Made by a program: the position numbers and the translations under genes. DNA of 35,569 bases from a virus. Positions 8,730-35,569 of the stretch are shown here, in pieces. The stretch lies in the UHGV virus genome UHGV-0196225. One strand, 5' to 3'. How positions within the stretch are numbered: the stretch's first letter is position 1; every line of letters begins with the position of its first letter. Under the pieces are notes generated by a model. It saw only the letters and a program-made list of their open reading frames with translations. It did not search any database and was not told where the DNA came from.

Positions 8730-9305
8730 ATGTTTAAAAGAGATGAAGAGTTGATTTTAGAGTATAAAACCAGTTTGAAGAACTTGCGTGCGAGCCATCG
8801 TGCAATCGAAAAGAAGAAACTTACAATTGTTAAAAACGAACAGGGACTAGATGAAGTAACCGATGTTCGTACATCTATTGATATTGAAGACCAGAGCAGA
8901 ATTGCAGGTATGATCAGAGATTGCGAGTATACAATCTTTTGGCTTGAGCATGGATACGAGAAACCATATAGTGATGATGATTTTAGAAAACTATGTAAAT
9001 CAAAGCGAGAGAAACTATGGGCTAATATCGATCATGCTGTTAGCTATTATGGAGTATCAGTTACTACTGATGACAAGAAAGATAAAGAAAAAACTGAACA
9101 ACATGAACAACTATTAGAGGTTCTCTCTACCCTATCGCCAAGAGAGTTGGAATTATTCAAACTGAGGAACGAAGCATTGCTGACAGAGCGAGAATGTGCT
9201 GAGAAGATGGGAATATCTTTTGGGACAGTTAAGTCTATGTCACAGCGAATCAGGGATAAAATAGATGATTATTTTAATTATGGATTTCAAGTGAAATTAT
9301 TTTGA
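8730..9305 (+). CDS. ArpU-family late transcriptional regulator (sigma-70 region-4-like)
   Basis: RBS GGAGG. The C-terminal LSPRELELFKLRNEALLTERECAEKMGISFGTVKSMSQRIRDK is an HTH of the sigma region 4 / ArpU type. Position is just before the packaging and structural genes. Confidence 0.6.
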   Translation: MFKRDEELILEYKTSLKNLRASHRAIEKKKLTIVKNEQGLDEVTDVRTSIDIEDQSRIAGMIRDCEYTIFWLEHGYEKPYSDDDFRKLCKSKREKLWANIDHAVSYYGVSVTTDDKKDKEKTEQHEQLLEVLSTLSPRELELFKLRNEALLTERECAEKMGISFGTVKSMSQRIRDKIDDYFNYGFQVKLF

Positions 9306-9546
9306 AATCTTGTAACCCAAACGCGACTTATATATAGAGTGATCTAAAAATTATGAGCTACTCACAATAACTCATAAAAAAGAAGGAGGTGACCCAGCCC
9401 CTTCAGTCAATTGTTTTAGGCGGCACAATCAAAAAATATATGAGGAACGGAGTTGAAAAACTTCATTTCCATTTAAAGTTCATGTGCCGTCTTTATGTTG
9501 CTGTGGCGGAAAGGGTAACGCCTATCTCATTCTGAGGTACGACTTG

Positions 9547-9572
9547 TAAGGTTCAATTCCTTACCAGTGACA
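9547..9572 (+). other. tRNA-like T-arm/acceptor motif 1 (no full cloverleaf found)
   Basis: TAAGG-TTCAATT-CCTTA (perfect T-arm) followed by CCAGTGAC. No complementary 5' acceptor strand upstream. Confidence 0.35.
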
Positions 9573-9586
9573 TTGGAGCTAGTTCT

Positions 9587-9653
9587 AGGATAGTAGCCAA
9601 ACGGTAAGGCGGCTCGGCGGAGTGACTTGCAGGTTCGAATCCTGTCTATCCAT
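9587..9653 (+). other. tRNA-like element 2
   Basis: AGGATAG...GCC-AAACGGTAA-GGC (D-arm-like)...GCAGG-TTCGAAT-CCTGT-CTATCCA. The acceptor pairs in 6 of 7 positions. The anticodon arm and variable region do not fit a canonical tRNA. Possible tRNA pseudogene or att scar. Confidence 0.35.
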
Positions 9654-9721
9654 TAACATTAAGTGGCGGCCCCTGTAATACATGACATAATACACCGCCA
9701 GCATATGAAAGGAGACTCCCC

Positions 9722-10072
9722 GTGGCCCTCAGAGCTGACAAGCAAGGTAAACATCGTGTTGCTTATGAAAAGAATAAAAAAAGAATACTCAAGACTCAAA
9801 ACGTTTGTGGCATCTGTGGCAAGCCAGTTAACAAGAAGTTGAAGTCGCCTGATCCAATGTCACCAGTTATTGACCATGTGATTCCAGTATCAAAGGGTGG
9901 TCATCCATCAGCGATAGAGAATCTACAGCTTGCACACTGGACATGCAACAGGCAGAAGTCAGACAAGATGTTTAATAATCAACAAAACAATCAGCAGGAA
10001 AAGAAGGTAATAGGTAATAGGAACCTTCCTCAAAGTATTAATTGGGGTTTGTATAGTTCAACAAAAAAATAA
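9722..10072 (+). CDS. HNH endonuclease (116 aa)
   Basis: CGICGK...DHVIPVSKGGHPSAIENLQLAHWTCNRQKSDK (HNH and zinc-finger motifs). GTG start with RBS AAAGGAGA. Position suggests packaging-associated (cos-type) HNH. Confidence 0.75.
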   Translation: MALRADKQGKHRVAYEKNKKRILKTQNVCGICGKPVNKKLKSPDPMSPVIDHVIPVSKGGHPSAIENLQLAHWTCNRQKSDKMFNNQQNNQQEKKVIGNRNLPQSINWGLYSSTKK

Positions 10073-10210
10073 GAATAAAAGTTTTGGAAAATAAAAAAGA
10101 AGTAATCGCAAGAGAAATATAGGGGGGATACCTCCCCCGACCGGTTGGCAGCCGACCTTCACGCAGTCACTGTACATTTTTTCTCGCGCGACATCCAAGG
10201 AGCTGACTAA

Positions 10211-11452
10211 ATGGGAATGCAAGGAATGGAATACTTAAAGAAAAAGCTGAGTTCGCGCCGTTCGCGAGTGAATATGCGTTATGAACATTACTCGATGAAA
10301 AATAGGGAATATGAAATTGGATTTACCATTCCAAAAAAAATAAGGGATCAATACAAAGCAGTTTTGGGGTGGTCAGCAAAAACAGTTGATAGCCTTGCAG
10401 ATCGATTAATATTTCGTGAGTTCGCAAATGACAATTTTGATGTAAATGAAATATTTAGGGCTAATAATCCCGATGTATTCTTCGATAGCGCGGTGTTGTC
10501 AGCCTTGATAGCATCGTGTTCTTTTGTTTATATTTCAAACGGAGAGGACGAAATACCACGGTTACAAGTTATTGAAGCGAGCAATGCGACTGGTGTGATT
10601 GATGAAACTACAGGCTTGCTTAAGGAAGGGTACGCTGTACTTGAACGAGATGAAAACAACAAACCTTCAGTTGAAGCATACTTCACCGGAGATCAAACAA
10701 CCTTTTATTATGCGGATAAGAATGTTGAGAACTTCTCCCTTGATAATCCGACAGGTCATCCGTTGTTAGTTCCGATTATTCATCGACCGGATGCCGTGCG
10801 GCCTTTTGGACGTTCAAGAATTACACGAGCCGGTATGTATTGGCAAAGAAATGCAAAAAGAACACTGGTGCGTGCAGACGTGACGGCTGAGTTCTATTCT
10901 TTCCCACAAAAGTATGTTGTTGGTACTGATCCTGATTCAGAGCCGTTAGATAGTTGGAAAGCAACGGTTTCTGCAATGCTTGAATTCACAAAAGGTGAAG
11001 ATGGAGAAAAGCCAACTCTTGGCCAGTTCACAACATCAAGCATGACACCGTTCACCGAGCAACTTAAAACTGCTGCAGCTGGATTTGCCGGCGAAAGTGG
11101 TTTAACATTGGATGATTTAGGGTTTGCCTCAGACAACCCATCGAGTGTAGAAGCAATAAAAGCTAGTCACGAGAATTTGAGACTTGCCGGAAGAAAAGCG
11201 CAACGTTGTTTTGGATCAGGCTTTTTGAATGTGGCATATTTAGCAGCATGTTTAAGAGATGATTTCCCATACATGCGAAGTCAGTTCATGACTACCGAAC
11301 CAAAATGGGAGCCGCTATTTGAGGCAGATATGTCTACGCTAGGATTAATTGGTGACGGAGTGCAAAAAATAAACACGGCAATTCCTGAATACATCAACGG
11401 TGAAACTATTCGTGATCTGACAGGGATTAAAGGAGCGAATGACAATGGATGA
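10211..11452 (+). CDS. Portal protein (SPP1 gp6-like family)
   Basis: RBS AAGGAG. Size 413 aa. Immediately precedes the gp7-family minor head protein. Family assignment by recollection, not search. Confidence 0.5.
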   Translation: MGMQGMEYLKKKLSSRRSRVNMRYEHYSMKNREYEIGFTIPKKIRDQYKAVLGWSAKTVDSLADRLIFREFANDNFDVNEIFRANNPDVFFDSAVLSALIASCSFVYISNGEDEIPRLQVIEASNATGVIDETTGLLKEGYAVLERDENNKPSVEAYFTGDQTTFYYADKNVENFSLDNPTGHPLLVPIIHRPDAVRPFGRSRITRAGMYWQRNAKRTLVRADVTAEFYSFPQKYVVGTDPDSEPLDSWKATVSAMLEFTKGEDGEKPTLGQFTTSSMTPFTEQLKTAAAGFAGESGLTLDDLGFASDNPSSVEAIKASHENLRLAGRKAQRCFGSGFLNVAYLAACLRDDFPYMRSQFMTTEPKWEPLFEADMSTLGLIGDGVQKINTAIPEYINGETIRDLTGIKGANDNG

Positions 11453-13058
11453 TATTGTTCCAGGACTCCTTGAATCCATTCAACATCAATTTGACGAACG
11501 AACAAAAAAGAGCGCTAAACTGAAGAATGCTGCAATCGCATTGAAGAAGAAAGAAGCAACCTATTTAGATGCGAATGGTTTTGCAATTGAACTTGGTGAA
11601 ATATTAGCCTCTATTTACGCAAAGAACCTGACCAAAAAAGTATTGCCAGACGGCAAGATGTACTACAACATTGCTGAGCGAATTATTCAACCAACGATGA
11701 AAAACAACTACGATCTTGTTTCCGGTTATGCAGGCGATGTTCAAAAACAATTGAATCAAGCCGCAGGGTTATACTTGAAAACTCAAATCCCTGATATGAA
11801 TCAGGATCGAATCAATGGGATTATCAATCGAATATCAAGCGAGCCTGATTTCGATAAAATTAAGTGGATGCTTGATGAACCGATAGTAAATTTTAGTCAA
11901 AGTATTGTCGATGATTCCATAAAAAAGAATGCAGATTTTCAGTCAAGAAGTGGTTTGCGCCCTAAAATCATTCGCCGCGTTTCTGGTCATGCATGTAAAT
12001 GGTGTCAAAGTCTAGCAGGATCATACGATTACCGTAGTGCTCCCGATGATATTTATAGACGACATGAGCGATGTCGTTGCACTGTTGAATACGACCCAGG
12101 AGATGGCAGACGGCAAAATATTTGGTCCAAAATTTGGAGACGGCCTGATAAAGATGATAAAATAGAGTTGAGAAAGAAAGCGGGTGTCGATAAAGACAAA
12201 GAGCTTTCTAAGAGAGCAAGAGCTGCACTCAACAAAACAAACATGCAAACGCAGGTCGGTAAAGATTATTACAGCCAATTCATTAATCACTTAGACAGTC
12301 TTGATAATCCAAGAGTGAAAGAAATGTTTGCTACTATGGCCGATCGACTAGACTTCATGAAGATTAAGGATGTACGTGCATACGCAAGTGGAAGCAGTGT
12401 TCAATTAAGCAAAGCCAGTTTTGTTGGTTCTTCATATCAAAAGCCGTTTCAAACCGTATACCATGAATTAGGGCACGCATTCGATACATTGGGAACGAAA
12501 GTTTTAACGGATAGTACGACTTACTCTACAGGACAAACTAAAAGAATGAAAATTCTTGGTCAAATGATGGATGTCGAAATCAAATCAACTCATGCTTCTG
12601 GAATACCGAGCTATTCGCTAAAAGAGGCAATAGATAATGATGTATGGCAGTTTATCAATGGTGATCTACCAACACTTGAAAGCCTTGGGAAAAGGCCAAG
12701 AAAAAAGGCCGAAAAGGAAGCTTGGGATAGAGAATACAGTCGAATACATGATCAATGGCAAAAGAACAAGAAAGCATTTTTAGATGATTATAAAAAGTTG
12801 GCCAAAGAGGATTTAGCTACCTATGGGGCGTTGTCTGATATGCTTGAATCAACCGGATACTTTGAGAGTTATCCTCTCGGAGTTGGCCACGGGTCAAAGT
12901 ATTGGAAAGACTACGGGAAAGCTGAAACAGAGTTTTTTGCTCACATGACAGAGTTAGCAGCAAACAATGAATCTGCAAAAATTATGAATGAAGTTTTTCC
13001 AAATGCAGCGAAGATTTGGGAGAATTTGGTAGACGACATCTTAAGGAAGGTGAAATAA
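11439..13058 (+). CDS. Minor head / head morphogenesis protein (SPP1 gp7 / Mu F-like)
   Basis: 539 aa. Overlaps the portal stop. Cys cluster CKWCQS...RCRC. Start may be the ATG at 11445. Confidence 0.5.
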   Translation: MTMDDIVPGLLESIQHQFDERTKKSAKLKNAAIALKKKEATYLDANGFAIELGEILASIYAKNLTKKVLPDGKMYYNIAERIIQPTMKNNYDLVSGYAGDVQKQLNQAAGLYLKTQIPDMNQDRINGIINRISSEPDFDKIKWMLDEPIVNFSQSIVDDSIKKNADFQSRSGLRPKIIRRVSGHACKWCQSLAGSYDYRSAPDDIYRRHERCRCTVEYDPGDGRRQNIWSKIWRRPDKDDKIELRKKAGVDKDKELSKRARAALNKTNMQTQVGKDYYSQFINHLDSLDNPRVKEMFATMADRLDFMKIKDVRAYASGSSVQLSKASFVGSSYQKPFQTVYHELGHAFDTLGTKVLTDSTTYSTGQTKRMKILGQMMDVEIKSTHASGIPSYSLKEAIDNDVWQFINGDLPTLESLGKRPRKKAEKEAWDREYSRIHDQWQKNKKAFLDDYKKLAKEDLATYGALSDMLESTGYFESYPLGVGHGSKYWKDYGKAETEFFAHMTELAANNESAKIMNEVFPNAAKIWENLVDDILRKVK

Positions 13059-13059
13059 A

Positions 13060-13290
13060 ATGTTCAGTGCAGAAGACGGAGCAATGGCACTCATTGAACC
13101 AGCTGTAGAAAAGTATGAATTACATTTCGGCAATACATTTCCGTTGTATGAATACATCGAGATGACTCAATCTGAAGGTTGGGATTTTTCAGTCGAAGGC
13201 GGAAAGAAACTAATCGCATTTATCGAGGAAAGAATTAAAAATGATGATCCAGTAGAGGTTCCAGCTGACTATGAGGATCGGACCTATTAA
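13060..13290 (+). CDS. Hypothetical acidic protein (76 aa)
   Basis: Starts 1 nt after the upstream stop. Confidence 0.35.
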   Translation: MFSAEDGAMALIEPAVEKYELHFGNTFPLYEYIEMTQSEGWDFSVEGGKKLIAFIEERIKNDDPVEVPADYEDRTY

Positions 13291-13457
13291 GTAGTACTCA
13301 ATGAAAAATGTTGGGTGCTATTTTTGTGCCTAAAAGGAGCGGTTTTTATGCCAAAACAGAATAAGTATTCTATCCCGATGACTTTAAGGCAGATTGTCGG
13401 GCTTTTTGTGTTGCCAAGAGAACGACTGCCAGATAAACCGAAGGAGGACAAGAAAAA

Positions 13458-13661
13458 GTGATTGTGTTCAAAGTCTCATTTAGTCAAGCGTGGGGGCGAT
13501 GGCGTGATTTTACGTTTGTTACCTGTAGAAGTGCAAGCGAAGCGATCACCAAGGCGCTAGAAGAAATCAACGTACCTGAAAAGATGAACGACAAAGTGAT
13601 TATAACCGTTTCTGTTGAAGGTCAGGTAGGGAAAAAGAAGAAAAGAGGAAAAAATAAATGA
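13458..13661 (+). CDS. Hypothetical protein (67 aa), GTG start
   Basis: RBS AAGGAGGA. Lys-rich tail. Confidence 0.35.
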   Translation: MIVFKVSFSQAWGRWRDFTFVTCRSASEAITKALEEINVPEKMNDKVIITVSVEGQVGKKKKRGKNK

Positions 13662-13843
13662 ATGAAGGGACAACACTCGTAATTTGGACACCTGAAGGAA
13701 AAACCTTATATTTTGAAAATGTTCAGAACATCGTAAACGGTGACGCTGAATTAACTTTTGAATATTTTGGTGTCAGCACTCAAGTAAAACGATCGGCTGT
13801 CTTCAATCAAATTAATATTGCTGGTTTCGCTTTTGGGATTTAG
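13658..13843 (+). CDS. Hypothetical protein (61 aa)
   Basis: Overlaps the upstream stop (ATGA). Confidence 0.35.
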   Translation: MNEGTTLVIWTPEGKTLYFENVQNIVNGDAELTFEYFGVSTQVKRSAVFNQINIAGFAFGI

Positions 13844-13895
13844 TTTTTCCCAGCGATAGGGTTATCATGCATCAAATGATTGAAGGGGGATCAAT

Positions 13896-15305
13896 ATGAC
13901 TACTAAAGTAAGACTTGGTAATCAGCATCCTACTCAATCGGTAATATTGCCATATGACAAAACCATGTCTCAACGAGCGATTGACCGTTATCAACGAACA
14001 GGCCGTAAGTGTTACGAATGGCAAGGAAATATGCTGAATCCGATGATGTCTATAGATAACGATGGATTATGGATTCATCAAAAGTTCGGTTTTTCCATAC
14101 CTCGTAGGAATGGTAAAACAGAAATTGTGTATATAGTCGAGTTAGATGCATTAGAAGAAGGACTCAGCATATTACACACTGCTCATAGAATCAGTACGTC
14201 TCATTCTTCATTCGAACAAGTGAAAAAACTTCTTGAAGATTCTGGTTACATTGAGGGCGAGGATTTCAATTCAATTAAGGCAAAAGGGCAAGAGCGATTA
14301 GAACTGTATAAAAGCGGCGGCGTCATTCAATTTCGTACAAGAACTTCCAGCGGTGGTCTTGGTGAAGGATTTGATCTACTCATAGTCGATGAAGCGCAAG
14401 AGTATACGACTGAACAAGAGTCCGCCTTAAAATATACGGTATCTGATAGTGATAACCCGATGACAATAATGTGTGGAACGCCGCCGACACCTGTTTCTAG
14501 CGGCACGGTGTTTACTCATTATCGCGATAAGGTTCTGTTTGGCAAATCAAAGTATTCAGGCTGGGCGGAATGGTCTGTTGATGAAATGAAAGACATTCAT
14601 GATGTTGAAGCATGGTACAACTCAAATCCATCAATGGGCTATCACTTGAACGAACGAAAAATTGAAGCAGAACTGGGAGAAGATGAATTGGACCATAACG
14701 TCCAACGTCTAGGATATTGGCCGAAGTACAATCAAAAGTCTGCAATTTCCGCAACAGAATGGGAAGGTTTGAAAGTCAGTCGTTTACCTGTTTTCAAAGG
14801 CCCTTTATTTGTAGGTATCAAGTATGGCAATGATGGTGCAAATGTTGCAATGAGCATAGCTGTTCGAACTTTATCAGGAAAAGTGTTTGTTGAAACAATC
14901 GATTGTCAATCAGTTAGAAATGGTAATCAGTGGATCATTAATTTTCTAAAGAATGCTGATGTAGCTGCAGTAACGATTGATGGTCAAAGCGGTCAAAGTA
15001 TCTTAGTGAAGGAAATGAAAGACTTTAGGCTTAAAAGTCCAATTTTGCCAAAGGTATCAGAAATCATTAATGCAAACTCTTCATGGGAACAAGGTATTTT
15101 CCAGAAAACCATTTGTCACAATGATCAACCTTCATTAACTACTGTTGCAACCAATTGTGAAAAACGAAATATTGGTTCAAGCGGTGGATTTGGGTACAAA
15201 TCGCAATTCGATGATATGGATATAAGTCTAATGGATAGCGCGCTTCTAGCGCATTGGGCTTGCGTTAATAAGAAGCCTAAATCAAAACAACAAATCAGGT
15301 ATTAA
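13896..15305 (+). CDS. terL: Terminase large subunit
   Basis: Walker A FSIPRRNGKTE, Walker B DLLIVDEAQE, and a C-terminal nuclease-like region. RBS GAAGGGGGA. Confidence 0.85.
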   Translation: MTTKVRLGNQHPTQSVILPYDKTMSQRAIDRYQRTGRKCYEWQGNMLNPMMSIDNDGLWIHQKFGFSIPRRNGKTEIVYIVELDALEEGLSILHTAHRISTSHSSFEQVKKLLEDSGYIEGEDFNSIKAKGQERLELYKSGGVIQFRTRTSSGGLGEGFDLLIVDEAQEYTTEQESALKYTVSDSDNPMTIMCGTPPTPVSSGTVFTHYRDKVLFGKSKYSGWAEWSVDEMKDIHDVEAWYNSNPSMGYHLNERKIEAELGEDELDHNVQRLGYWPKYNQKSAISATEWEGLKVSRLPVFKGPLFVGIKYGNDGANVAMSIAVRTLSGKVFVETIDCQSVRNGNQWIINFLKNADVAAVTIDGQSGQSILVKEMKDFRLKSPILPKVSEIINANSSWEQGIFQKTICHNDQPSLTTVATNCEKRNIGSSGGFGYKSQFDDMDISLMDSALLAHWACVNKKPKSKQQIRY

Positions 15306-28578: not shown

Positions 28579-29877
28579 ATGAAAAAGAATAAAATTATTA
28601 TGAGCCTTATTGTGGCTCTTTTTTTGTTGCCGTTTTTTTCGAGCACCGCACAAGCGGCGAAAGGGGATCAGGGTGTAGATTGGGCCGTTTATCAAGGTGC
28701 ACAGGGGAAATTTGGGTATGGTTCTGATAAGTTTTCTATCTCGCAAATAGGTGGTTATAATGCGAATGGCCTTTATGATCAGTGGACGTATAAAAGCCAA
28801 GTAGCAAGTACGATCGCACAAGGGAAACGAGCACATACTTATATCTGGTATGACACGTGGGGGAGTTTATCGATTGCAAAAACTACGATGGATTACTTTT
28901 TGCCGAAGATACAAACACCCAAGAACAGTATTGTGGCACTAGATTTTGAGCATGGAGCCAGTTCGAACAAACAAGCGAATACAGATACGATCTTATACGG
29001 AATGAGGCGGATCAAGCAAGCTGGTTACACACCGATGTACTATTCTTATAAACCCTTCACTCTTCAGTATGTGAACTATCAGCAAATTCTAGCAGAGTTC
29101 CCGAACAGCTTGTGGATGGCTGCATATCCGAATTACAATGTGACGCCAAGTCCAGTTTGGAGTGTTTTCCCATCGATGGAAGGCGTAGCAATATATCAGT
29201 TTACGAGTACTTATGTTGCTGGTGGACTTGACGGTAATGTTGATTTAACAGGTATTACAGATAGCGGATACAACGGAACTAACAAAGATGATGACGGAAA
29301 AGTTACTGTTAAACCTGAAACGACACCGCCAGCGGTAGAACAAGGTCAAGAAGCTAACGAAACATCTAAAAAAGACATTGAACCAGGGTTCAAAGTAAAA
29401 GTGAATTTCTCAGCATCAAAATGGTTAACGGGTGAACCTATTCCTACATGGGTTAAGGGAAACAGTTACACTGTTAAAGAAATTGACGGAAGTAAGGTGT
29501 TGTTAGATGGAATCATGAGTTGGATCAATCGTAAAGATGTAGAAATTATCGAAACAAATGCTGCAAATCCAGTGCAATCAAGCGATGTTCATGTGGTCCA
29601 AAGCGGTGAAACTTTATCCGGCATCGCCTCTAAGTGCAACACTTCTTATCAATCATTAGCAAGCTTGAACGGGTTGACTAATCCAAATCTGATTTATGTT
29701 GGCCAACTTTTAAAAGTTAAAGGTTCGAATGTTTCAACCAGAATTTATGCAGTGCAAGTGGGTGAAACGCTTTCTAGTATCGCTTCTAAGTTAGGTACTA
29801 GCTATCAAAAACTTGCTCAGGAAAACAGTATTGCGAATCCTAATTTGATCTATCCAAATCAACGACTAGCTTATTAA
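28579..29877 (+). CDS. Endolysin: signal peptide + GH25 muramidase + SH3-like + 2x LysM
   Basis: N-terminal [29 protein letters not shown] is a Sec signal with AQA cleavage site. GH25-like [12 protein letters not shown]. Two C-terminal LysM repeats ([12 protein letters not shown]..., [12 protein letters not shown]...). Confidence 0.8.
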
Positions 29878-33175: not shown

Positions 33176-34399
33176 TTATTTAATATCCTTTTTCAGTAAA
33201 TTATCAAATGCAATCGTAGCTGTATCTTGTTGTTTCTTTAGAGCGTGACCGTAAATATTCATCGTTGTGTTGTAGTCGCGATGCCCTAAGCGCTCTTGCA
33301 ATTCTTTAGCAGTCATTTCTGGATTGCTTAATAAATATGTTGCAGATGTATGTCGAATATCGTGAAATCTAATATGTCTTAAATTGTGACGCTTAGTGAA
33401 TCTTTTGAATTTTTTGTATAGGTAACTTCCACGTGGGAGAGTTCCATCTTGTTTAGTGTCAAAAATAAAGTAATGATCTAAACGGCTTACTTTTAATTTC
33501 CAGCGAATCTTTTTGTTGTGGTTAATCAAATCTTTCAGCACATCAAATAAGTAGGCAGGACCAGAAACAACCTTTGAATCATCATTATTTTTAAGACCTG
33601 GTAACAACTGTACGTTTGATTTTCCATCTACCTCGGATATTCTTTGATGGAAGACAATTCTTTTATTGTCAAAATCAATATCTTTTTCTTCTAATGCCAC
33701 GATTTCGCCTTGACGCGCAGCAGTGATAAAGGCAGTGAGTATAAGTGCTTTAATTTCAATATCTTCAGCGAAGGCAGAAGAGATCATTTTGTTGATTTCC
33801 TCCTCAGAGTAGGGTTCTTCAACGTTCTTTTTAACTCCCTTTTCCTTTGGAATCTTTACTTTTTGCGCAGGATTGTCTTTAATGATCCCATACTCTTCTT
33901 GGGCAATGAGAAAGACACTATTGATTGCGTAAAGCATTTGCTTTTTTGTAGCTCTGCTAAGTGGTTTTTCAGAATTACGTCCTGGGTCCTTTGTATTTAT
34001 TCTCTTAGCATTAAGAATAATGTCTTTAATCATGTATGGCTTAATATCAACAAGGGAAGTATATTCAAATTTATTCATAAATCGATTATTGATATGTTTA
34101 TTGTAGTTATGGAAAGTTTTTGGTTCCAGGTTTCTTGATGCTTCTTTCATCCAAAAATTTTCCACAAACTGACCAAATGTAATGGTTAGTAAATCAATGT
34201 TTTTCAAACCAACCGTTTCAAAATCTTCTATCCAGTCATCTAACAAACGAAATGCTTTTCTGATATTCGGAGCTTCTACGTTTTTGCTCGTTCTTTTAGG
34301 ATTTCCTTTCTCATTATATCCGAGTGTGATTCTGAGTTTGTACTTTCCGTTTCCCAAGTCTTCTACAGAGCCTGTAAGTTCTTTCCTTTTTCTTGCCAT
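33176..34399 (-). CDS. int: Tyrosine integrase (phage integrase family)
   Basis: C-terminal catalytic residues ...IRFHDIRHTSATYLL... and MNIYGHAL (His-x-x-Arg ... Tyr). N-terminal SAM-like domain. The listed start at 34441 is a TTG. The ATG at 34399 is preferred. Confidence 0.85.
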   Translation of the reverse strand: MARKRKELTGSVEDLGNGKYKLRITLGYNEKGNPKRTSKNVEAPNIRKAFRLLDDWIEDFETVGLKNIDLLTITFGQFVENFWMKEASRNLEPKTFHNYNKHINNRFMNKFEYTSLVDIKPYMIKDIILNAKRINTKDPGRNSEKPLSRATKKQMLYAINSVFLIAQEEYGIIKDNPAQKVKIPKEKGVKKNVEEPYSEEEINKMISSAFAEDIEIKALILTAFITAARQGEIVALEEKDIDFDNKRIVFHQRISEVDGKSNVQLLPGLKNNDDSKVVSGPAYLFDVLKDLINHNKKIRWKLKVSRLDHYFIFDTKQDGTLPRGSYLYKKFKRFTKRHNLRHIRFHDIRHTSATYLLSNPEMTAKELQERLGHRDYNTTMNIYGHALKKQQDTATIAFDNLLKKDIK

Positions 34400-34426
34400 A
34401 ATTGAATCAACTACCTTTCTTTGATA

Positions 34427-34509
34427 CAATAGGCAAAGCAAATAGGCCTATTGCGGGTTTATTTTCTTTAGCACACCAAGTAGCTTGCCGGCGGTTGGTG
34501 TGCTTTTTA
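34427..34509 (+). terminator. Two tandem hairpins between immA and int
   Basis: CAATAGGC-N9-GCCTATTG, then GGGTTTATTTTCTTT. Then perfect AGCACACCAA-N15-TTGGTGTGCT followed by TTTTT. Both are oriented as + strand intrinsic terminators. Confidence 0.4.
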
Positions 34510-35007
34510 ACCTGAATGTCTAATAGGTTGAATAAAAATTGATTCACTATCAAAGAAAAATTGATAGTTACGATGAAAATGACTAGTGCCATATTTGTTA
34601 AAGTAGTGAGTTAGAGAATCTTCAATGAAATCGGGAGTTACCTCTAAAAACTCAGCACATTCATATTTTGTATGACAGTCATTTAAAGCACAGTTTAATA
34701 AGTCATCAAGTGTGACAAGAGTTTCAACTGCATATCTTCTGGCTTTCCATTCTTCCTTCCAAGCACCAGGGGAATTATAATCAACTATATTCCCTACTGA
34801 TCTTTTGTAATGTCCATATTCTTCAGCCAGAACAATTGTTTTCTCAATCATACTTTTAGTCTTGTCTAAATAAATTTTGCCATTCCTATAAAATCCAGTA
34901 TATCCAGTAGCGGATTTTATGTTTTCTTCATAAACTGGGAGTTCAGAACTAATCCCATCTAACAACCTCTCGTATTTGTCCATATTAAAAAACCTACTTC
35001 TTATCAT
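34507..35007 (-). CDS. ImmA/IrrE-family metallopeptidase-like protein (putative repressor protease)
   Basis: 166 aa, overlaps the 3' end of the cI-like gene. Degenerate HEXXH-like EEYGHY. Position between repressor and int matches ImmR/ImmA systems. Confidence 0.45.
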   Translation of the reverse strand: MIRSRFFNMDKYERLLDGISSELPVYEENIKSATGYTGFYRNGKIYLDKTKSMIEKTIVLAEEYGHYKRSVGNIVDYNSPGAWKEEWKARRYAVETLVTLDDLLNCALNDCHTKYECAEFLEVTPDFIEDSLTHYFNKYGTSHFHRNYQFFFDSESIFIQPIRHSG

Positions 35008-35461
35008 ATTTCCTATCTATTTCATCTAAAACAGAATTAATATTGTCTAAGTCATTTTTAGTAACTTTCCTTTTAAGGTCATCTGAATGGGCAGCAAGCG
35101 TGAATGGTTCGCTTGACTCATTTTTCGATGCTTGTTCTTGTTCATAAAGGTTTTGACTAAATTTAATAACAGATTTTTTGCTGTCGTTACTCAATTTAGA
35201 GAAAATTTGATTTGCTTTCTTAGTCAGAAAATCGGTAGTCATAGAACTTTGTTCATTTGATATTAAGTCAAATAAGTGTTGAGGTGAAACTCCTAATGCT
35301 TTAGAGTATACCGAGATATCCTTTTCGGTAATTGATCTATTTTGGTTTTCATGATTGGAGATAGTATTTTGACTAAAGCCGGTTATTTCACTAAGTTCTT
35401 TTTGAGTCATACCTTTTTCTTTTCTGAGGGACTTAATTGCTGGACCAATAACATTTTTCAC
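34994..35461 (-). CDS. cI-like XRE-family repressor (GTG start)
   Basis: HTH GMTQKELSEITGFSQNTISNHENQNR. RBS GGAGAGGAGA 7 nt before the GTG at 35461. The listed longer ORF has no RBS. No S24 peptidase domain, consistent with ImmA-dependent control. Confidence 0.7.
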   Translation of the reverse strand: MKNVIGPAIKSLRKEKGMTQKELSEITGFSQNTISNHENQNRSITEKDISVYSKALGVSPQHLFDLISNEQSSMTTDFLTKKANQIFSKLSNDSKKSVIKFSQNLYEQEQASKNESSEPFTLAAHSDDLKRKVTKNDLDNINSVLDEIDRKYDKK

Positions 35462-35490
35462 GGTACATTCTCCTCTCCTATGAGAAAAAT

Positions 35491-35509
35491 ATATCACATG
35501 GCGAGATAA
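35491..35509. promoter_or_regulatory. Operator site 1 (imperfect) overlapping predicted P_cI
   Basis: ATATCAC-ATGGC-GAGATAA. P_cI -10 TATATT is the complement of 35488-35493. -35 TTTACT is the complement of 35511-35516. Confidence 0.5.
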
Positions 35510-35521
35510 TAGTAAATAAAA

Positions 35522-35540
35522 ATATCTCATGTTGTGATAA
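35522..35540. promoter_or_regulatory. Operator site 2 (imperfect)
   Basis: ATATCTC-ATGTT-GTGATAA. Centre lies 31 bp from sites 1 and 3. Confidence 0.45.
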
Positions 35541-35545
35541 AAAGC

Positions 35546-35569
35546 TTGCAATATATCTCGTAATGAGAT
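35546..35569 (+). promoter_or_regulatory. P_cro -35 TTGCAA and operator site 3 (ATATCTC-GTAAT-GAGAT..), both completed across the window junction
   Basis: TTGCAA at 35546-35551, then a 17-nt spacer. The -10 TATATT is made of base 35569 plus bases 1-5. Operator half-site GAGATAT is completed by bases 1-2. RBS at 13-20, cro ATG at 28. Confidence 0.5.

Follow-up and report, generated by a model that had tools for sequence, protein, structure and literature searches.

Two tRNA-derived elements lacking a usable anticodon loop in a noncoding block of a temperate siphophage genome

Two tRNA-like elements between the sigma-factor-like and HNH genes

The virus genome UHGV-0196225 was analysed over its whole length of 35,569 nucleotides (the window) and is a complete, circularly permuted genome of a temperate siphophage with an Enterococcus-like host. 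Between the gene of a sigma-70 region-4 protein and the gene of an HNH endonuclease lies a noncoding block (9306–9721), the second half of which carries two tRNA-like elements on the plus strand, element 1 (9497–9572) and element 2 (9587–9653). An earlier note had described the block as a long noncoding stretch with two tRNA-like modules, and this is borne out: it has no credible open reading frame (ORF) and contains two matches to the tRNA model that go beyond chance. The sole ORF of the block (48 residues, 9389–9535) was rejected because a 2-nt indel breaks its frame among close relatives (alignment A1, six relatives of the sigma module). Related loci and contigs are designated below by L numbers.

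Element 1 is laid out as GTTGCTG-TG-GCG[GAAAGGGTAA]CGC-C-TATCTCA-TTC-TGAGGTA-CGACTT-GTAAGG-TTCAATT-CCTTAC-CAGTGAC-A. Its acceptor stem (GTTGCTG, 9497–9503, with CAGTGAC, 9565–9571) forms seven of seven pairs, two of them G·U. It is followed by U8–G9 (9504–9505) and a D arm (9506–9521), whose variant GGTAACGC is common to L136 and L178. The 3' part consists of U48 (9545), a 6-bp T stem (GTAAGG/CCTTAC, 9546–9551 and 9559–9564) with the 7-nt T loop TTCAATT (9552–9558), the 3' acceptor strand and A73 (9572). A 17-nt hairpin of 7 bp with a UUC loop (9523–9539) replaces the anticodon and variable arms. The perfect T arm that the note had recognised (TAAGG-TTCAATT-CCTTA) is present, but its stem has 6 bp rather than 5; the acceptor-like CCAGTGA was one base out of register, the true 3' strand being CAGTGAC, and the full acceptor stem and the D arm had been missed in what was taken for a T-arm/acceptor module only.

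No anticodon arm with a 5-bp stem and a 7-nt loop carrying U33 and a purine at position 37 is found in element 1. Its middle can nevertheless be drawn as a 5-bp stem (9523–9527 with 9535–9539) around the loop CAUUCUG, in which case the element would be a real, if unusual, decoding tRNA-Glu(UUC). ARAGORN draws such a cloverleaf at 90% thresholds and the Rfam score is 26.7 bits, but this score lies below the Rfam gathering threshold and the cloverleaf below the ARAGORN default. The loop would break with the universal U33 (it has A33) and with a purine at position 37 (it has U37), the body is of the Leu type with a 6-bp T stem, the same bases make a more stable 7-bp stem with a 3-nt loop, and a canonical loop occurs in no member of the family described below. 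We regard a decoding tRNA-Glu as highly improbable.

Element 2 has a tRNA body of the Gln/Asn type and a collapsed anticodon arm (AGGATAG-TA-GCC[AAACGGTAA]GGC-G-GCTC-GGCG-GAGT-GACTT-GCAGG-TTCGAAT-CCTGT-CTATCCA-T). Its acceptor strands (9587–9593 and 9646–9652) form six of seven pairs with an A1·A72 mismatch, its D arm spans 9596–9610 and its T arm 9629–9645. These parts had been noted earlier, together with the statement that no anticodon arm fits; the position is in fact occupied by GCTC-GGCG-GAGT (9612–9623), a 4-bp stem with a tetraloop that is 5 nt short of an anticodon loop. In the alignment to the Rfam tRNA model RF00005, nine central anticodon-arm positions of the model are filled by 4 nt, and a 5-bp stem with a 7-nt loop is lacking here as well. 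Neither element encodes CCA; in both, an A discriminator is followed by TT.

The D arm of element 2 (TAGCCAAACGGTAAGGCG) is that of canonical phage tRNA-Gln, tRNA-Cys, tRNA-Asn and others. It recurs in the tRNA-Gln(UUG) of L339, which stands 4 nt after a Leu-like element; the same pair is ~130 nt apart in L338. A gapped pattern run on the metagenome collection found two relatives of element 2, L347 and L348. The first is a canonical tRNA-Asn(GUU) with D and T arms as in element 2, and comparison with these canonical genes indicates that element 2 descends from a Gln/Asn-type tRNA. The second is a 1.4-kb contig of an otherwise unrelated phage of the Enterococcus faecium type, in which element 2 recurs at 64/67 identity with an identical GCTC-GGCG-GAGT arm, after a Leu-like element that is somewhat degraded. 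The window and L348 are homologous from the 8-nt CTAGTTCT (9579–9586, plus strand) to just past the element. Because the homology is limited to these two parts, element 2 is a self-contained cassette that has travelled between leaders not related to each other. Of the three bases that differ in L348, two (T9594 to G and T9645 to C) would be able to form a pair if the acceptor were shifted to 9588–9594/9645–9651, which would make A9652 the discriminator; two sequences do not suffice to choose between the registers. Separately, in a tRNA array of a 178-kb phage (L001, 280–1010, minus strand), the ORF of an HNH endonuclease is followed after 8 nt by an isolated tRNA 3' half that is identical to the T arm and acceptor of element 2 over 23 nt; a second 3' half comes next, with a weak permuted-tmRNA-like Rfam match (350–400).

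Standard tools do not report these elements. Default ARAGORN finds no tRNA anywhere in the window, and Rfam at the gathering threshold reports nothing over the whole window. A permissive Rfam scan of 9200–10300 (1.1 kb) matched RF00005 at 9587–9653 with 38.2 bits (E=3e-6) and at 9497–9572 with 26.7 bits (E=0.0046), and ARAGORN relaxed to 90% and 80% thresholds draws both cloverleaves. The ARAGORN and Rfam checks proposed in the note thus give no default call and two tRNA-model matches. With a gathering score of 29, element 2 lies above it, in the permissive run only, and element 1 below it. The 38-bit match, 9 bits above gathering, is missed in the whole-window run because of a filter effect, as tRNA-like RNAs with collapsed arms escape the speed filters; a permissive run over 27 kb likewise missed the L348 copy of element 2. 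The idea that the two modules do not fold as canonical tRNAs therefore stands for their collapsed anticodon arms, but both are otherwise complete cloverleaves. GOLLD, ROOL, ribozymes, T-box, YrlA and transfer-messenger RNA (tmRNA) were also considered and rejected, as none gave an Rfam match at permissive thresholds in the window or in 12 related loci.

A tRNA-Leu-like frame in many phages

Element 1 belongs to a family that was collected from IMG/VR contigs with the pattern TGTYRCTGTGGCGGAA, i.e. its 5' acceptor strand and the start of its D arm. At least 119 contigs matched; ~80 matches are real and the rest are chance hits in high-GC contigs. Restricting these to cases with a fitting 3' acceptor strand and a T arm next to it left 93 instances (63 unique) among the matches listed. 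They share what we call the 7/6 frame: a 7-bp acceptor, TG, a D arm GCGGAA..GGTAGACGC (also written GCGGAA..GGTA(GA)CGC; 9497–9521 of element 1 conforms to it) and a 6-bp T stem that abuts the 3' acceptor strand. The 7-nt T loops read TTCGATT, TGCAAAT, TGCRATY or GGCAGTG, and the discriminator comes next with no encoded CCA. The D and T arms are separated by an insert of 23 to ~196 nt that falls into ~30 unrelated classes, and this middle region is never canonical in the 93 full-frame instances. Element 1, with its 7-bp acceptor, D arm, 6-bp T stem, 7-nt loop and non-canonical insert, has all parts of the frame and, at 23 nt, the shortest insert. A suspected common insert motif (GAGGG) did not exceed shuffle expectation. 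The inserts of L354, L355 and L361 and the Enterococcus 109-nt class (e.g. L103) can be drawn by eye as H-type pseudoknots, in which bases of the first hairpin loop pair just upstream of the T stem. A group I intron in tRNA-Leu was rejected as an explanation of the inserts, which at 23–196 nt are mostly too small and matched no intron model.

The family D arm is the same as in the tRNA-Leu genes that ARAGORN calls in L183, L207, L342 and L345. L183 carries a canonical tRNA-Leu(UAA) with a 5-bp T stem and the acceptor GTCACTG of the Enterococcus-group members, followed by tRNA-Lys(UUU) and tRNA-Gln(UUG), and plausibly gives a picture of the ancestral array. These likenesses indicate that the element 1 family descends from tRNA-Leu. 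The extra T-stem pair is a derived character of the family and gives a 13-bp acceptor/T helix, as in tRNA-Sec.

Compensatory changes support the frame. In the first set (A2, 57 frames), 94.8% of cells pair, compared to 84.3% in shuffles and 33–45% with slid partners, and five of the six T-stem pairs show compensatory changes, although most of the rows had been selected by requiring pairing and the 5' strand was fixed by the pattern. An independent scan used only the D-arm pattern VGTGGCGGAAAGGGTAGACGC and excluded the common acceptor. It returned the same architecture in 14 of 14 contigs with completely different acceptors (e.g. GGCAAGG/CCTTGCC, CCACCCG/CGGGTGG and GACACGG/CCGTGTC). These members lie within ordinary tRNA arrays (L354, L358), mostly have A73 and, in L352, have an encoded ACCA. 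In this second set (A5), 97.1% of cells pair vs 75.9% in shuffles and 35–45% in slid controls, and changes on both sides occur at six of seven acceptor pairs, at five of six T-stem pairs and at 11 of the 16 frame pairs overall (covariation score 0.61 vs 0.16). RNAalifold, given 13 short members and no prompting, drew a cloverleaf: besides the acceptor and D stems it has a tetraloop arm (4 bp, loop YGNG), a variable arm and the T stem of 6 bp. Altogether the frame is conserved with covariation over more than 70 distinct sequences from many phages, and its anticodon domain is never canonical. Because pairing is kept across differing acceptors and the stems covary, the 7/6 frame is a selected RNA structure.

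The family is almost absent from the GenBank phage collection (50,697 phages). No Rfam family matched its members at permissive thresholds, and no ARAGORN call overlaps one in the loci scanned. The exact T-arm/acceptor patterns of both elements returned from IMG/VR only an unrelated tRNA remnant of a jumbo phage. Full-text literature searches yielded no description of such a family, an absence that is no proof of novelty; apparently it is a widespread and undescribed phage family.

In relatives, the position of the block is taken by various tRNA and tRNA-like genes. Canonical tRNA-Met is found there in L003, L074 and L076, tRNA-Asn in L082–L084, tRNA-Lys in L089, L090 and L109, and tRNA-Gln in L338 and L339. 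Leu-like elements are found there too, often two in tandem, and L065 has a cloverleaf with a 5-nt loop and no anticodon. A group of ~17 loci (L032 and, e.g., L035–L037, L040–L046, L048, L049, L054, L070, L071 and L077) carries a mini tRNA-like gene (65 nt; L032 2040–2150) that has a promoter-like sequence and a terminator of its own and consists of an 8-bp acceptor (TTAGCTGT/ACAGCTAA), one hairpin and the T arm ATGGG-TTCGAAT-CCCAT. This gene lies directly upstream of a ~190-aa ORF that resembles, by eye, a tyrosine-recombinase catalytic domain. A third module, closed by GCACCCA/TGGGTGC, occurs in L348 (430–514) and L081 (2995–3150), where it stands in L081 for elements 1 and 2. It has a TTCGAGT loop at the anticodon position and a TGCGATA T loop, and ARAGORN calls the L348 copy tRNA-Ser(cga), a doubtful call. 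In E. faecium-type phages, the array separates the ArpU gene from the first late gene and is closed by one or two intrinsic terminators, with the ribosome-binding site of the first late gene at most ~10 nt after them.

The suggestion that the modules are degenerate phage tRNA genes comes closest among the options raised earlier, given their Leu and Gln/Asn descent and the canonical tRNAs at the same spot in relatives, although 'degenerate' understates element 1 because its frame is intact and conserved with covariation. Taken further, it becomes the main rival to a function: both elements would be decaying, functionless relics of a Leu-Lys-Gln/Asn-type array that lost their anticodon loops by small deletions, with frames whose apparent conservation would only reflect the youth of the copies and their spread through recombination. 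Several observations weigh on this side. The decay products of tRNA-Lys and Leu-like genes occur at the same locus in relatives: L098, L104, L135 and L141 have tRNA-Lys copies truncated by internal deletions, L123 a Leu-like element without a T arm and L348 a truncated Leu-like copy. Homing-endonuclease genes disrupt such elements in L198, L173 and L001; in the first two, an HNH_3-type gene (INHKNGNKLDNR motif) follows a Leu-like acceptor and D arm whose 3' half is gone, so that tRNA-like genes appear to be homing targets, by analogy with T4 SegB. L081, the closest relative of the sigma module (sigma protein 97% identical), and phage vB_ElaS_B1578 have neither element, so that both are dispensable. 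Element 2 is represented by two 96%-identical copies only, which recent transfer of a dead gene would fit, and one of the differences in L348, G for U8, falls on a conserved position of the tRNA tertiary structure. In the family searches, positions 8–15 were fixed by the patterns.

Against decay, element 1 acceptors that are wholly different between phages remain paired, with 11 of 16 pairs double-changed, and the derived 6-bp T stem is found in all members as opposed to 5 bp in the L183 tRNA-Leu. More than 60 variants retain U48, the T loop and the frame while none has an anticodon loop, structured inserts as long as ~196 nt are still present, and both copies of element 2 keep a perfect hairpin at the anticodon arm. 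Decay is weightier for element 2 than for element 1; for the two together, we consider it a serious but clearly less likely explanation. The conserved frames and collapsed arms suggest instead that both elements are probably non-decoding tRNA mimics, matured like tRNAs and selected for their frame.

A probable late-operon leader and the genome around it

The first ~190 nt of the block are conserved and structured and probably form a promoter-proximal leader of the late operon. The window from 9306 to ~9511 is found at 75–94% identity in contigs with sigma-like homologues (72–97% protein identity). Straight after the stop codon, a block at 9306–9345 (plus strand; TGAAATCTTGTAACCCAAACGCGACTTATATAT; given for the contigs with homologues as TTGTAACCCAAAYGCGAC) is nearly invariant in the six relatives (A1, blastn). 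It is a candidate late promoter, and late transcription plausibly starts at the block; a sigma-70 consensus scan called no promoter at 9306–9345.

Three plus-strand hairpins or helices follow. The first, H1 (9352–9376, TATGAG...CTCATA), was found by RNAalifold in the six relatives and has two pairs changed on both sides (GC to AU and AU to GC). The second, H2 (9381–9405), is conserved in relatives and carries a Shine-Dalgarno-like sequence (AAGGAGGTGA, 9383–9392) with no start codon at translation distance; an analogous hairpin (AAGGAKGTG...CTCCTT) lies upstream of the elements in E. faecium-type phages. Shine-Dalgarno-like 5' stabilisers (STAB-SD) occur in Bacillus (B. subtilis and B. thuringiensis), and H2 may by analogy be such a stabiliser. 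The third, H3 (9419–9492), is a 9-bp long-range helix (GGCGGCAC/GTGCCGTC, GTGCCGYC across relatives) around an inner hairpin at 9444–9471. It is retained in six of six relatives and, by eye, with another sequence in L003.

A window scan found no plus-strand intrinsic terminator between the leader, the elements and the HNH gene. At the right end of the block, a hairpin (GGCGG...CCGCC, 9665–9699) and the ribosome-binding site of the HNH gene (together 9662–9721, plus strand) form the left edge of a module that is shared with portal relatives, and homology to L002–L004 and L081 picks up again at 9665–9705. Searches with the block itself were unproductive: BLAST of the gap against the 50,697 GenBank phages gave no match, a 16-nt leader pattern gave chance matches in high-GC contigs, and in a scan of genome contigs with a leader pattern of 14 specified bases, E. 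malodoratus was the one real match among chance ones. In the Enterococcus avium prophage L089 (3115–3290), an insert separates the conserved post-sigma block from the leader and carries a short hydrophobic opposite-strand ORF with its own terminator that looks like a type I toxin.

The sigma-70 region-4 gene (8730–9305, plus strand) encodes a 191-aa, Xpf-like 'positive control factor' late regulator (Pfam Sigma70_r4_2, 4e-8; PHROG 1190 sigma factor, 5e-38). It comes after RecU-like and replication genes. The earlier note had called this neighbour ArpU and the other HNH; the HNH assignment holds, and 'ArpU' names a functional analogue rather than the Pfam family found, since homologues in E. 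avium are named positive control factor or sigma factor-like. The IMG/VR search gave no relative of the sigma protein, and its homologues came from a larger protein search and contig look-ups. The HNH endonuclease (9722–10072, plus strand; Pfam HNH, 5e-13) adjoins the portal gene in most of 79 related loci and is likely of the packaging-associated type. Late genes follow, i.e. the portal (10211–11452), a minor head protein (11439–13058) and the large terminase (13896–15305), and the late-gene run ends with a GH25/LysM lysin (28579–29877). The minus strand encodes an integrase (33176–34441), a repressor module (34507–35551) and, inside the early region, an IS110-family transposase (1909–3117; DEDD_Tnp_IS110 and Transposase_20). 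A second apparent gap, ahead of the large terminase (13290–13896), contains small ORFs, one of which (13658–13843) resembles a 61-aa ORF beside the RNA array of L103.

The 79 loci with a related portal gene share the window from ~9700 onward and have neither the sigma gene nor the gap, so that the block lies on a mosaic junction. In L082 (4078–4890), a relative with 82% identity in the sigma module, a Leu-like element and tRNA-Asn are followed by a TIR-domain gene and not by HNH and portal genes.

A mosaic junction, and the fact that contigs L084 and L085 end inside the homologous region, would also suit a block that acts as DNA, either as a cohesive-end (cos) or pac recognition region or as the scar of a tRNA-targeted attachment (att) site at a module boundary, both of which the note had listed. 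Neither reading is supported. The compensatory stem changes indicate RNA structure. The integrase is 23 kb away and attP is expected near it, at ~33 kb; both elements have their 5' and 3' halves, and the only other T-arm-like hairpin in the window (2219) is a long way from the integrase. Elsewhere, between the HNH and portal genes, there is a conserved cos-like block (10121–10192; GGGGGGnTACCCCCC ... CTTCACGCnGTCACTGTACATTTTTTCTCGCG), where a GGGGGGATACCTCCCCC palindrome is followed by CTTCACGCAGTCACTGTACATTTTTTCTCGCGCGAC and the sequence is kept in distant relatives with portal identity of 60–70%. This is the likely genome terminus, because contigs of six relatives (L017, L025, L051, L056, L066 and L068) begin inside it, L051 with TGTACATTTTTTCTC. 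Further, among 27 loci cut by a contig end upstream of the portal, 11 end 55–240 nt before the portal gene. As indirect evidence, these ends suggest that the cohesive ends lie near 10170 (TGTACATTTTTTCTCGCG), ~450 nt downstream of the block. Contig ends inside the RNA array were rejected as termini, as they fall at differing bases; this is what assembly breaks at repeats common to co-resident prophages would give. A role of the block as DNA is, of all the explanations considered, the one to which we give the least credence.

Possible roles and known precedents

Under the preferred reading of the elements as non-decoding tRNA mimics, the block would be the 5' leader of the late (packaging and morphogenesis) operon with two tRNA-derived cassettes in its second half. 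The elements would be transcribed together with the late leader and excised by RNase P and RNase Z, would then gain CCA and persist as stable tRNA mimics, and the same cuts would part the leader from the late mRNA. Such a mimic could serve as a scaffold for a variable RNA domain, as a decoy for tRNA-binding factors or as a processing signal.

Charging is a further possibility for element 1. The leucyl-tRNA synthetase (LeuRS) of E. coli requires A73 and the hinge contacts U8:A14, A15–U48, G18:U55, G19–C56 and U54:A58, a minimal truncated tRNA-Leu is active while A73 and the D/T-loop contacts are intact, and the enzyme needs neither the anticodon nor the variable arm (PMC9976931). Element 1 has the whole set by sequence (T9504, A9510, A9511, the D-loop GG, T9545, TTCAATT and A9572), and 'type A' family members keep the same set. 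U48, the T loop and A73 are observations independent of the search patterns, and A73 is found in 12 of 15 rows of the broad set. Because the family keeps the features that LeuRS needs and drops those it does not, element 1 may still be leucylated yet useless for decoding. Leucylation is not general to the family, since U73 prevails in the Enterococcus subgroup and G18G19 and U55 are missing from a 'type B' subfamily, which has the D loop AAGTAGAAGA, the T loop GGCAGTG or TGCRATY and a U discriminator; we hypothesise that it was retained in type A only. One tentative proposal, which we think unlikely, is that a widespread class of phage tRNA-Leu mimics with the full LeuRS set, the 13-bp helix and a hypervariable, often pseudoknotted domain is charged, or at least bound by tRNA enzymes, but excluded from the ribosome, and acts as tRNA-scaffolded effector RNAs or as decoys against tRNA-targeting immunity.

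The variable domain also raises the possibility of anti-defence decoys. Non-decoding mimics would soak up host or rival-prophage factors that attack tRNAs, such as anticodon or variable-loop nucleases and toxins that modify the acceptor end, leaving translation undisturbed because they cannot decode, and the hypervariable domain would reflect an arms race. At the same locus, relatives have canonical tRNAs for Lys(UUU), Asn(GUU), Gln(UUG) and Met(CAU), and among these at least the Lys and Met isoacceptors are reportedly targeted by anti-phage tRNases. Phage tRNAs have been described as a counter to such defences (PMC10264068, PMC11464382, PMC11555353, PMC13056530), and Septu is reported to cut within the variable loop of a class II tRNA (PMC13096335). 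The collapsed or replaced region is the part that these nucleases cut, and the ~30 insert classes would agree with diversifying conflict. However, relaxed constraint predicts insert diversity equally, no defence gene is linked to the elements in the loci examined, and the literature searches turned up no decoy of this kind. Decoys in this sense are improbable.

The closest precedents, by analogy, are tmRNA for architecture and anticodon-independent identity, the T4 RNA species I and II, and organellar tRNA-like processing elements. Canonical phage tRNAs (RF00005), including tRNA-Leu(UAA), share with the elements the acceptor, D and T arms, the elbow nucleotides, the array position and the lack of an encoded CCA, and the L183 tRNA-Leu acceptor GTCACTG corresponds to GTTGCTG, with two G·U pairs, in the window. 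Unlike them, the elements have no 7-nt anticodon loop and cannot read a codon, and element 1 has the 6-bp T stem and the hairpin. In tmRNA (SsrA), too, an inserted and often pseudoknotted domain replaces the anticodon arm of a tRNA frame, and identity is read without an anticodon (Ala in tmRNA, Leu here). In contrast to tmRNA, the elements have a full D stem and lack G3·U70, a tag ORF and the ring of four pseudoknots. In element 1, position 3–70 is U·G, the body is of the Leu type and an ORF is absent. The tmRNA insert is ~300 nt long compared to 23–196 nt in the family, and neither ARAGORN nor Rfam matched tmRNA on the elements.

The ends of T4 species I and II are tRNA-like, and their processing goes together with that of the tRNAs. 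Likened by description only, they resemble the elements as stable-RNA genes within a phage tRNA region, but belong to phages of a different host group and are not known as Leu-type or hypervariable-insert RNAs. A map legend in PMC2330249 describes them as small stable RNAs of unknown function among the T4 tRNA genes. YrlA is a non-coding RNA with a tRNA-mimicking domain that has also been reported in phages (PMC4201824). Its tRNA-like part, unlike the elements, is internal, and its termini form the Ro-binding stem; RF02553 gave no match on the elements at E<=10, and no rsr-like (Ro60) gene is present among the annotated neighbours.

In plant mitochondria, t-elements are tRNA-like structures that, as mascRNA-type signals do, set RNA ends through cuts by RNase P and RNase Z. 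The window elements are similar in that they are part of an mRNA leader and no terminator separates them from the first gene. Those systems are eukaryotic or organellar, however, and punctuation is not the whole story because most members of the family have their own promoter-to-terminator unit. Finally, the long-insert members resemble the engineered 'tRNA scaffold' of Ponchon and Dardel, in which a foreign RNA reportedly replaces the anticodon arm of a tRNA and the cell processes and stabilises the product. That scaffold is a laboratory design, and element 1 has almost no cargo.

One frame thus recurs in more than 100 viral contigs, some designs have their own promoter and terminator, and the elements are invisible in phage annotation because standard tRNA finders and Rfam do not report them. 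The frames are repeated among co-resident prophages and so break assemblies, and they mark the early/late module junction at which these phages recombine. If they are functional, phages re-use the enzymes of tRNA maturation, and possibly those of charging, for RNAs with no part in translation, which bears on why phages carry tRNA loci and on the part of these loci in conflicts with tRNA-cleaving defences. Should the tentative proposal of charged or enzyme-bound mimics be true, tRNA-Leu mimics would be a second tmRNA-like invention, made by viruses.

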